Shown: one piece after another, positions 3,485-4,143 of the stretch
Numbering within the stretch: position 1 is the first letter of the stretch
How the letters are laid out: each line of letters opens with the position of its first letter
From: Escherichia coli
GTDB taxonomy: Bacteria; Pseudomonadota; Gammaproteobacteria; Enterobacterales; Enterobacteriaceae
Reading direction: 5' to 3' (one strand)
Length of the DNA: 5,142 bases
Assembly: GCF_003334315.1 (NCBI RefSeq)
Contig: NZ_QOWR01000097.1
The notes under the pieces: generated by a model
What the model saw: the letters and a program-made list of their open reading frames with translations, nothing else
What the model was told of the DNA's origin: nothing
The model's database searches: none
Program-made: the position numbers and the translations under genes

Positions 3485-3544
3485 TGGAGTAGTGGGCAAT
3501 TAAGTTCTATAATTGTGTACACATATTGAGTACATGAGGTGTTT
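3485..3544 (+). promoter_or_regulatory. phd-doc promoter/operator region: -10-like TATAAT, palindromic Phd operator sites and Shine-Dalgarno sequence
   Basis: TATAAT at 3508-3513; perfect 8-bp palindrome GTGTACAC at 3515-3522 and a related GAGTACAT site at 3528-3535, whose centres are 13 bp apart; GAGG at 3536-3539 sits 5 nt before the ATG at 3545. Autoregulation by Phd/Doc binding to paired palindromes in the promoter is established for the P1 module. The -35 element is not convincing by eye. Confidence 0.5.
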
Positions 3545-3766
3545 ATGCAATCTATTAACTTCCGTACCGCACGCAGCAATCTTACCGAAGTGCTCAACAA
3601 TGTTGAAGCCGGAGAAGAGGTTGAAATCACCCGTAGAGGTCGTGAGCCAGCTGTAATTGTCAGCAAGGCCACTTTCGAAGCCTACAAAAAAGCGGCGCTG
3701 GATGCTGAATTCGCATCCCTGTTTGACACTCTGGACACCACCAATAAGAAACTGGTTAACCGATAA
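3545..3766 (+). CDS. phd: Phd antitoxin (Phd/YefM family), 73 aa
   Basis: Translation [73 protein letters not shown] closely matches my recollection of phage P1 Phd in sequence and length. The ORF track starts at GTG 3539, but ATG 3545 with its upstream GAGG is the likely start. The stop overlaps the doc start in a TAATG arrangement. Confidence 0.9.
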
Positions 3767-4143
3767 TGAGGCATATATCACCGGAAGAGCTTATTGCAAT
3801 TCATGATGCGAATATAAGCCGCTACGGCGGCCTGCCAGGCATGTCAGATTCGGGAAGAGCTGAGGCTATTATCGGGAGAGTCCAGGCCAGAGTTGCATAT
3901 GAAGAGATTACCGGCCTTTTCGAAGTCTCCGCAACTTACCTGGTGGCTACTGCGAGAGGGCATATATTCAATGATGCCAATAAGCGTACCGCGCTAAACA
4001 GTGCGTTGTTATTTCTGCGCCGTAACGGTGTGCAGGTATATGATTCACCAGAACTGGCAGAGCTTACTGTGGGGGCTGCGACCGGAGAGGTATCCGTATC
4101 TACTGTCGTTGCCACGTTACGTAGATTGTATGGTACGGCGTAG
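3766..4143 (+). CDS. doc: Doc toxin (Fic-fold kinase that phosphorylates EF-Tu), 125 aa
   Basis: Translation [90 protein letters not shown]... closely matches my recollection of P1 Doc and includes the intact Fic-type catalytic motif HIFNDANKR. Its ATG overlaps the phd stop by 1 nt (TAATG), consistent with translational coupling. Confidence 0.9.

Follow-up and report, generated by a model that had tools for sequence, protein, structure and literature searches.

The DNA analyzed here (henceforth the window) is a 5,142 bp stretch of Escherichia coli chromosomal DNA, of which positions 205-5142 are 100% identical to the chromosome of E. coli strain PEC389, and at least 80% of which is covered in 34 complete genomes. 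At its center lies phd-doc, a two-gene operon encoding the antitoxin Phd and the toxin Doc. The original prediction, made from the letters of the sequence, had proposed a complete P1-type phd-doc operon at 3485-4143, and comparison with phage P1 confirms it, uninterrupted, at these positions: Phd is identical to P1 Phd in 69 of 73 residues (95%, E = 5e-51) and Doc to P1 Doc in 115 of 125 (92%, E = 1e-86), with the window Doc lacking the last residue of the 126 aa P1 protein. Both frames are full-length and free of frameshifts. Doc-type Fic domains are typified by the motif HxFx(D/N)(A/G)NKR with a catalytic histidine, His66. The predicted intact form of this motif, HIFNDANKR, is indeed present at Doc residues 66-74 (nucleotides 3961-3987) and is identical to that of P1. 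Sequence profile comparisons place Doc in the NCBIfam family TIGR01550 (DOC_P1; 122.8 bits against a cut-off of 38.65, over residues 3-119) and Phd in the Phd/YefM family TIGR01552 (phd_fam; 45.8 bits against 20.8), whose members combine an N-terminal domain for DNA binding and dimerization with a toxin-binding tail at the C-terminus. Doc residues 1-125 align to chain A of PDB 3K33 (E = 1.5e-71), and Phd residues 1-73 match the full-length Phd of PDB 3HRY and 3K33, with the Doc-binding C-terminus (residues 52-73) retaining 20 of 22 residues of the P1 version. RefSeq already names the products a Phd/YefM family antitoxin and a death-on-curing family toxin, followed by a PdcA pseudogene (4151-4252). 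Elsewhere, on the plasmid pYuKOS15-2 (L010 464-844), a P1-type doc is frameshifted while phd is intact, a case of toxin decay with the antitoxin kept.

The organization of the two genes is that of a coupled type II operon of the P1 phd-doc kind: the antitoxin gene precedes the toxin gene, and the phd stop codon TAA (3764-3766) overlaps the doc ATG (3766-3768) in the sequence cgaTAATGagg, with TAATG at 3764-3768. The ribosome site GAGG (3536-3539) is located 5 nucleotides upstream of the phd ATG, and TATAAT (3508-3513) is in register with the -10 box of the promoter Pphd annotated in the P1 record NC_005856. The overlap, the Shine-Dalgarno sequence and the -10 box had all been predicted, and each is found in the same register as in P1. 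The window and P1 operons (the latter at NC_005856 88046-88647; PDB 3K33, 3KH2, 3HRY) thus have in common their gene order, gene lengths, one-base stop/start overlap, ribosome site, Fic motif, -10 box, left operator site, operator spacing and the 5' part of the downstream pdcA gene. They differ in four Phd residues (G11S, S14T, S65T and E69K), ten Doc substitutions, about 9% of their nucleotides, two of the ten positions of the right operator site and a poorly conserved -35 region. Further, the upstream humD gene of P1 is replaced in the window by a hairpin derived from an insertion sequence (IS) of the IS200/IS605 type and a fimbrial operon, pdcA is truncated, and the window copy is chromosomal whereas that of P1 belongs to a plasmid prophage.

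Phd-Doc of P1 recognizes a pair of neighboring palindromes (PMC13034048), and the corresponding sites of the window were assigned from reviews and by homology to P1. Two GTAC-centered palindromes had been predicted here. The left one, GTGTACAC (3515-3522), stands and is in fact the inner part of a perfect 10 bp palindrome, TGTGTACACA (3514-3523), identical to that of P1; the right one, GAGTACAT (3528-3535), is palindromic only in its GTAC core. The right 10-mer, TGAGTACATG, is self-complementary at 4 of 10 positions, as against 8 of 10 for CGAGTACACG of P1, to which it is identical at 8 of 10 positions. The right-site 10-mers of the window and of P1 each match the left site at 7 of 10 positions, and the centers of the two sites are 13 bp apart in both. 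Other P1-like operators are also variable, with TGCGTACACA and CGAGCACACG in phage D6 and CGAGTACATG in the P1-like plasmid of strain W444, and the changes in the window fall within the range found among these elements. At the sequence level, an autoregulatory operator with two adjacent candidate Phd sites is therefore present.

Alignment of the window to the P1 genome, which had been proposed as a check, recovered homology between window 3502-4252 and P1 88004-88753 (90.8% identity over 751 bp), and chance resemblance to P1 is not in question. To the left, in-register identity falls to 13 of 24 positions at 3478-3501 and to 6 of 38 at 3440-3477, indicating that the P1-type DNA starts at about 3478. 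In P1 this limit lies just past the humD stop codon, and the P1 record notes at the same place after humD the start of a cassette common with another plasmid. To the right, the homology crosses doc into pdcA, the next gene of P1, of which 41 of 66 codons are retained up to 4252; at this point the sequence passes into the inner part of an IS3-family remnant. The module is a 775 bp P1-type cassette, extending from the promoter to the middle of pdcA, preceded by an IS200/IS605-type end and followed by an IS3-family remnant. A 164-codon open frame on the forward strand (4001-4495) starts inside doc in another frame, follows the pdcA frame through the stub and continues antisense to the IS remnant. 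Most likely this frame arose through the fusion of the pdcA stub to the IS sequence and is not a gene.

The retained 5' part of pdcA bears out the predicted P1-like ancestry of the module. The further suggestion of a recent acquisition from P1, however, fails on the divergence: relative to P1, phd has a synonymous divergence (dS) of 0.27 and doc one of 0.37, and the ratio of nonsynonymous to synonymous divergence (dN/dS) is 0.09-0.10, which indicates a long evolution apart from P1 with purifying selection at work. All 22 matching phage records fall below 95% identity, with the P1-like phages at 89-92%. No other P1 genes (humD and lxr upstream, full pdcA and pdcB downstream) were found in the island of strains ZF34 or PEC389. 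The homology to P1 is confined to 3478/3502-4252, and the surrounding DNA does not qualify as a P1-like (Punavirus) plasmid prophage.

The nearest relatives of the module, at 99-99.9% identity, are instead cargo blocks of phage-plasmids related to Salmonella phage SSU5 and pHCM2. In PLSDB, 35 plasmids match positions 3361-4226 at 99% or more, and the two that were inspected, pLAO4 (NZ_OP242218.1) and plasmid A of E. coli strain D4 (NZ_CP010144.1), are non-mobilisable elements of 112 and 114 kb that carry a whole yehD-chaperone-usher-adhesin operon directly upstream of phd-doc. The DnaB-like helicase of these two plasmids is 99.1% identical to that of SSU5, which identifies them as SSU5/pHCM2-type phage-plasmids. 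pLAO4 is 99.2% identical to the window over 205-4226 and 99.9% identical over 3361-4226, with identical Phd and Doc proteins. The block shared by island and plasmids spans about 6.8 kb (PEC389 L001 9229-16022; 96-99.9% identity) and comprises an IS3-family element, the yeh-like fimbrial operon with its terminator, the IS200/IS605-type hairpin, phd-doc and the pdcA stub. Its flanks differ: in the plasmids these are the primase gene and SSU5 backbone, and in the island the IS3-family remnant and the integrase gene. In pLAO4 a 7.5 kb stretch with the block (L003 1467-8941) replaces a 1.2 kb variable region beside the primase gene of SSU5 (L005 6997-8175). This stretch is bounded on one side by a 33 bp IS1 end fragment and an internally deleted IS, which we take to be IS2-like, and on the other by 75 bp with no identified match. 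At one end, the homology between plasmids and island begins within the IS3-family transposase gene annotated ahead of yehD, and the plasmid version of this element therefore looks incomplete. At the other end the homology runs to 4226, while P1-type pdcA sequence extends in the island to 4252. Given these 26 additional bp, a derivation of the island copy from the present-day form of the SSU5-like plasmids is ruled out; either the block came to the plasmids from a source resembling the island, or a common ancestor already had the P1-type cassette joined to the fimbrial operon.

Table 1. Features of the window, with the basis of each assignment
Feature	Position	Strand	Basis
IS1 end, truncating the 5' end of the fimbrial usher gene	1-204	-	99.5% identity to IS1 copies of PEC389 (L001)
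Usher remnant of yeh-like chaperone-usher operon	243-2339	+	Open reading frame (ORF) list, RefSeq annotation
Fimbrial adhesin-like gene of the same yeh-like operon	2350-3360	+	ORF list, RefSeq annotation
Terminator-like hairpin closing the fimbrial operon	3388-3414	+	Perfect 11 bp stem, then T-run TGTTTTT
Solo IS200/IS605-family (IS609-like) end hairpin	3415-3477	+	About 85% identity to tnpA-proximal ends of tnpA/insQ elements
P1-type segment: Pphd, operator, phd, doc, 5' part of pdcA	3478-4252	+	BLAST and in-register identity to P1
Pphd promoter: -35 TGGAGT 3485-3490, 17 bp spacer, -10 TATAAT 3508-3513	3485-3513	+	Homology to P1
Operator: left site TGTGTACACA 3514-3523, right site TGAGTACATG 3527-3536	3514-3536	+	Homology to P1
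phd antitoxin gene, 73 aa	3545-3766	+	P1 Phd match; RefSeq WP_001603498.1
doc toxin gene, 125 aa	3766-4143	+	P1 Doc match; RefSeq WP_053270478.1
pdcA', first 41 of 66 codons of P1 pdcA, fused to IS sequence	4130-4252	+	Translation aligns with P1 PdcA
IS3-family remnant: terminal inverted repeat and first 72 orfA codons	4253-4540	-	Weak NCBIfam match; RefSeq partial transposase
Hairpin with 13 bp stem, just beyond the integrase stop codon	4623-4651		Stem of 13 bp
P4-type tyrosine integrase gene, 3' part, runs off the window	4654-5142	-	162 aa open frame; integrase model positions 274-397 of 413

The surroundings of the module (Table 1) contain debris of several mobile elements. The module had been predicted to lie between two IS remnants; IS debris is indeed present on both sides, but the nearest remnant on the left is the IS200/IS605-type hairpin at 3415-3477 and not the IS1 end at 1-204. 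This hairpin (TTATCCAGAGCGCC...GGCGCACTGGATAA) has a folding energy of -29.4 kcal/mol (z = -3.9). It is a lone IS end, lacks a transposase, has an outer stem longer than in the IS copies, and sits exactly at the left limit of the P1-type DNA. Its relatives are the tnpA-proximal ends of IS200/IS605-family elements (tnpA plus insQ/tnpB) scattered in E. coli chromosomes; related copies are present in about half of the complete E. coli genomes and also in one Morganella phage record. The right-hand remnant (4253-4540) has a weak NCBIfam match to the N-terminus of IS3-family transposases, is annotated in RefSeq as a partial transposase, and is presumably IS911-like. An identity of this remnant (4240-4520) with the IS3-family element upstream of yehD in PEC389 (L001) was considered, but no BLAST match was recovered and the two are different elements. 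The junction between the IS3-family remnant and the integrase gene is also found in genomes without phd-doc (matches H183-H189); the P1-type cassette was therefore joined to a feature that the island already had. A scan of the whole window against Rfam recovered no RNA family reaching its gathering threshold.

The predicted association with an island, with the module about 0.5 kb from the 3' end of a P4-family integrase gene, likewise holds. In the chromosomes that are 100% identical to the window, the full 420 aa integrase gene abuts a tRNA-Phe gene (pheU), which is followed by dicD, dsbD and cutA, and cadC lies on the far side of the island, defining it as a tRNA-Phe (pheU) island with a P4-type integrase. 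PEC389 retains an undamaged usher (L001 11649-14135), and the truncation of this gene by the IS1 end in the window indicates that the yeh-like fimbrial operon beside phd-doc is inactivated in the window strain. Among the full-window matches listed, no genome aligns in one colinear piece that has IS1 at the window position; HeN100 and YZ22MPE6 match in two pieces over about 7.6 kb. In ZF34 (L008 18183-19361) an independent IS1 event left only the last 369 nucleotides of the fimbrial operon. phd-doc is nevertheless 100% identical in the window, with IS1 in the usher, in ZF34, with the operon mostly deleted, and in PEC389, with the operon intact. The approximately 12 kb pheU island of ZF34 additionally contains a cbtA/yeeU type IV toxin-antitoxin pair, an antirestriction gene and a JAB (RadC-like) gene, and in this strain an integrase remnant adjoins cadC. 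In PEC389 (L001 300-4884) the genes glgS, yqiI, yqiH and a truncated yqiG adjoin the pheU island across an IS1 copy; we take these genes to belong to a distant region of the K-12 map, which would imply a large IS1-mediated rearrangement in PEC389.

Among 5,426 complete E. coli genomes, 1,233 carry P1-type phd-doc, at 1,241 plasmid and 86 chromosomal places. By identity, 63 records fall at 99% or above, 21 at 95-99%, 1,155 at 90-95% and 78 at 80-90%. The exact junction of doc, the pdcA stub, the IS remnant and the integrase gene by pheU recurs in 49 of the 5,426 chromosomes, in DNA that is 97-100% identical, with many of the strains being from pigs and other livestock. The rarity of chromosomal copies fits a 2009 review in which no Doc homolog was found in seven E. 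coli chromosomes (PMC2654758). Our literature search found no paper joining phd-doc with pheU, and a paper on the pheU, pheV and selC islands reported only yeeU/yeeV systems. A few strains appear to hold more than one copy. The chromosome NZ_CP040927.1, apparently of strain YY76-1, carries the island copy, and a 163 kb plasmid record with the adjacent accession (NZ_CP040928.1; cow host, presumably the same strain) has the same block at 99.3% identity. Likewise, W444 (NZ_CP122507.1 and NZ_CP122510.1) combines the island copy with a P1-like plasmid phd-doc at 89.7% identity. Exchange or cross-talk between copies could occur naturally in both strains.

The above architectural and contextual observations make it very probable that the window holds an intact allele of the P1-type phd-doc type II operon, which is carried as cargo in an E. 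coli pheU island, works as that of P1 does and diverged from P1 long ago. In such an operon, transcription would proceed from the promoter with the TATAAT -10 box, and the translation of phd and doc would be coupled via the TAATG overlap. Doc has been described as phosphorylating EF-Tu (PMC4803016), and from the 92% identity to P1 Doc we infer that the window protein, a predicted Fic-fold kinase, would do the same and stop translation. By homology to P1, the disordered C-terminus of Phd would fold onto Doc and block it, and Phd would likewise be protease-labile, P1 Phd being a ClpXP substrate according to work cited in PMC4803016. Repression of the operon would come from Doc-bridged Phd dimers that occupy the neighboring pair of operator sites following the -10 box, with the toxin:antitoxin ratio setting the degree of repression, as in the conditional cooperativity described for phd-doc (PMC3920265). 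With a labile Phd and a stable Doc, loss of the DNA by island excision or IS-mediated deletion would free Doc and arrest the growth of the cell, making the segment hard to lose. A stabilization of the island, or of this segment of it, by phd-doc is thus plausible. The intact state of phd-doc next to a fimbrial operon hit by IS1 in both the window and ZF34 would offer indirect support, though no more than a hint, given that certain chromosomal toxin-antitoxin systems do not keep deletions from occurring (PMC2654758). Comparable cases are the cassettes of the Vibrio superintegrons, phd-doc among them, and the chromosomal ccd module of Erwinia chrysanthemi: as here, these are plasmid-type modules in acquired chromosomal DNA, and resistance to deletion or protection from plasmid addiction has been proposed for them (PMC2654758). 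Such roles were put to experimental test in those systems, whereas that of the present module is deduced by analogy.

Several observations weigh against this interpretation. Besides the failure of some chromosomal modules to prevent deletions and the 26 bp by which the plasmid homology falls short of the island pdcA, the window itself holds only the 3' 489 nucleotides of the integrase gene. Moreover, the -35 hexamer is weak (TGGAGT in the window, TGGTGC in P1), and the region upstream of the -10 box is the poorly matching stretch 3478-3501 noted above, with its 13 of 24 identities. Due to the weak hexamer, a generic sigma-70 scan of 3300-4700 did not call Pphd, and the promoter assignment rests on the register with the annotated P1 promoter. 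The TGGTGC of P1, however, matches the consensus TTGACA at only 2 of 6 positions and could not pass the threshold of that scan either, and the -35 stretch varies among P1-like phages, being unconserved even between P1 and D6. The weak hexamer could also be read as a sign that the operon is an inert hitchhiker, a leftover of IS-mediated capture that is silent or non-toxic and has had too little time to decay. The degraded surroundings, with the truncated pdcA, IS remnants on both sides and a usher cut by IS1, would agree with this, as would frameshifted doc alleles elsewhere, such as that of pYuKOS15-2. Yet the two genes retain open frames and an unbroken catalytic motif, the ribosome site, -10 box and operator are likewise intact, the dN/dS relative to P1 is about 0.1, and Phd and Doc are identical in the window, ZF34 and pLAO4, with the junction DNA conserved at 97-100% across 49 chromosomes despite independent IS1 damage nearby, which together render an inert module improbable. 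Still fainter is the case for a recently captured fragment of P1 or of a P1-like plasmid prophage, a reading to which we attach very little probability. It would account for the P1 gene order phd-doc-pdcA and for a right end that is an IS junction, but 90.8% nucleotide identity and a dS of 0.27-0.37 rule out a recent capture from P1. Furthermore, the 22 matching phage records are all below 95%, the relatives at 99-99.9% are SSU5-like phage-plasmids with the same fimbrial linkage, and the island has no other P1 genes.

Other explanations accept an active operon and differ in what it might do for the cell. In an anti-addiction role, the chromosomal Phd would neutralize the Doc left behind by a lost P1-like phage-plasmid, and the escape of the host from killing would be the benefit that keeps the module. 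Exposure to such elements is common, since about one in five complete E. coli genomes has plasmid-borne P1-type phd-doc. The Doc-binding Phd C-terminus differs from that of P1 at only 2 of 22 residues, and W444 carries the island copy together with a P1-like plasmid copy; the model is also established for ccd (PMC2654758). However, the same allele is found on phage-plasmids, where it would most naturally be taken for an addiction module, and we hold the anti-addiction role to be a minority possibility. A bolder conjecture, that the island copy is anti-addictive through a cross-neutralizing Phd or else that IS-mediated exchange moves the block of fimbriae and phd-doc back and forth between the pheU island and SSU5-like phage-plasmids, is likewise a minority possibility as a whole and is offered tentatively. 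A role in phage defense by abortive infection, in which host shut-off by the phage would let Phd decay and Doc halt translation before the phage cycle is completed, seems distinctly unlikely. The island neighborhood of PEC389 does include a DUF262 gene, of a family that we take to be defense-related, and such a role has been proposed as a general property of type II toxin-antitoxin systems (PMC3920265, PMC2654758).

Thus, in conclusion the phd-doc module of the window is real, intact and ordinary, an allele close to the prototype of its family and one that is already annotated in public genomes. Since phd-doc is a textbook toxin-antitoxin pair and RefSeq names both exact proteins, its importance extends little beyond annotation. 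Nonetheless, chromosomal P1-type phd-doc is rare in E. coli relative to the plasmid-borne form, and the history of the present copy is corrected from a recent P1 acquisition to an old lineage held in common with SSU5-like phage-plasmids. Were the block indeed to shuttle between island and phage-plasmids, phage particles would spread a self-stabilizing adhesin cassette, and were the island copy anti-addictive, its carriers could shed P1-like plasmids without dying. The locus hence offers a natural test case for two questions, namely whether a plasmid addiction module may guard island DNA from IS-driven decay and whether an island-borne module may immunize its host against addiction to P1-like plasmids.

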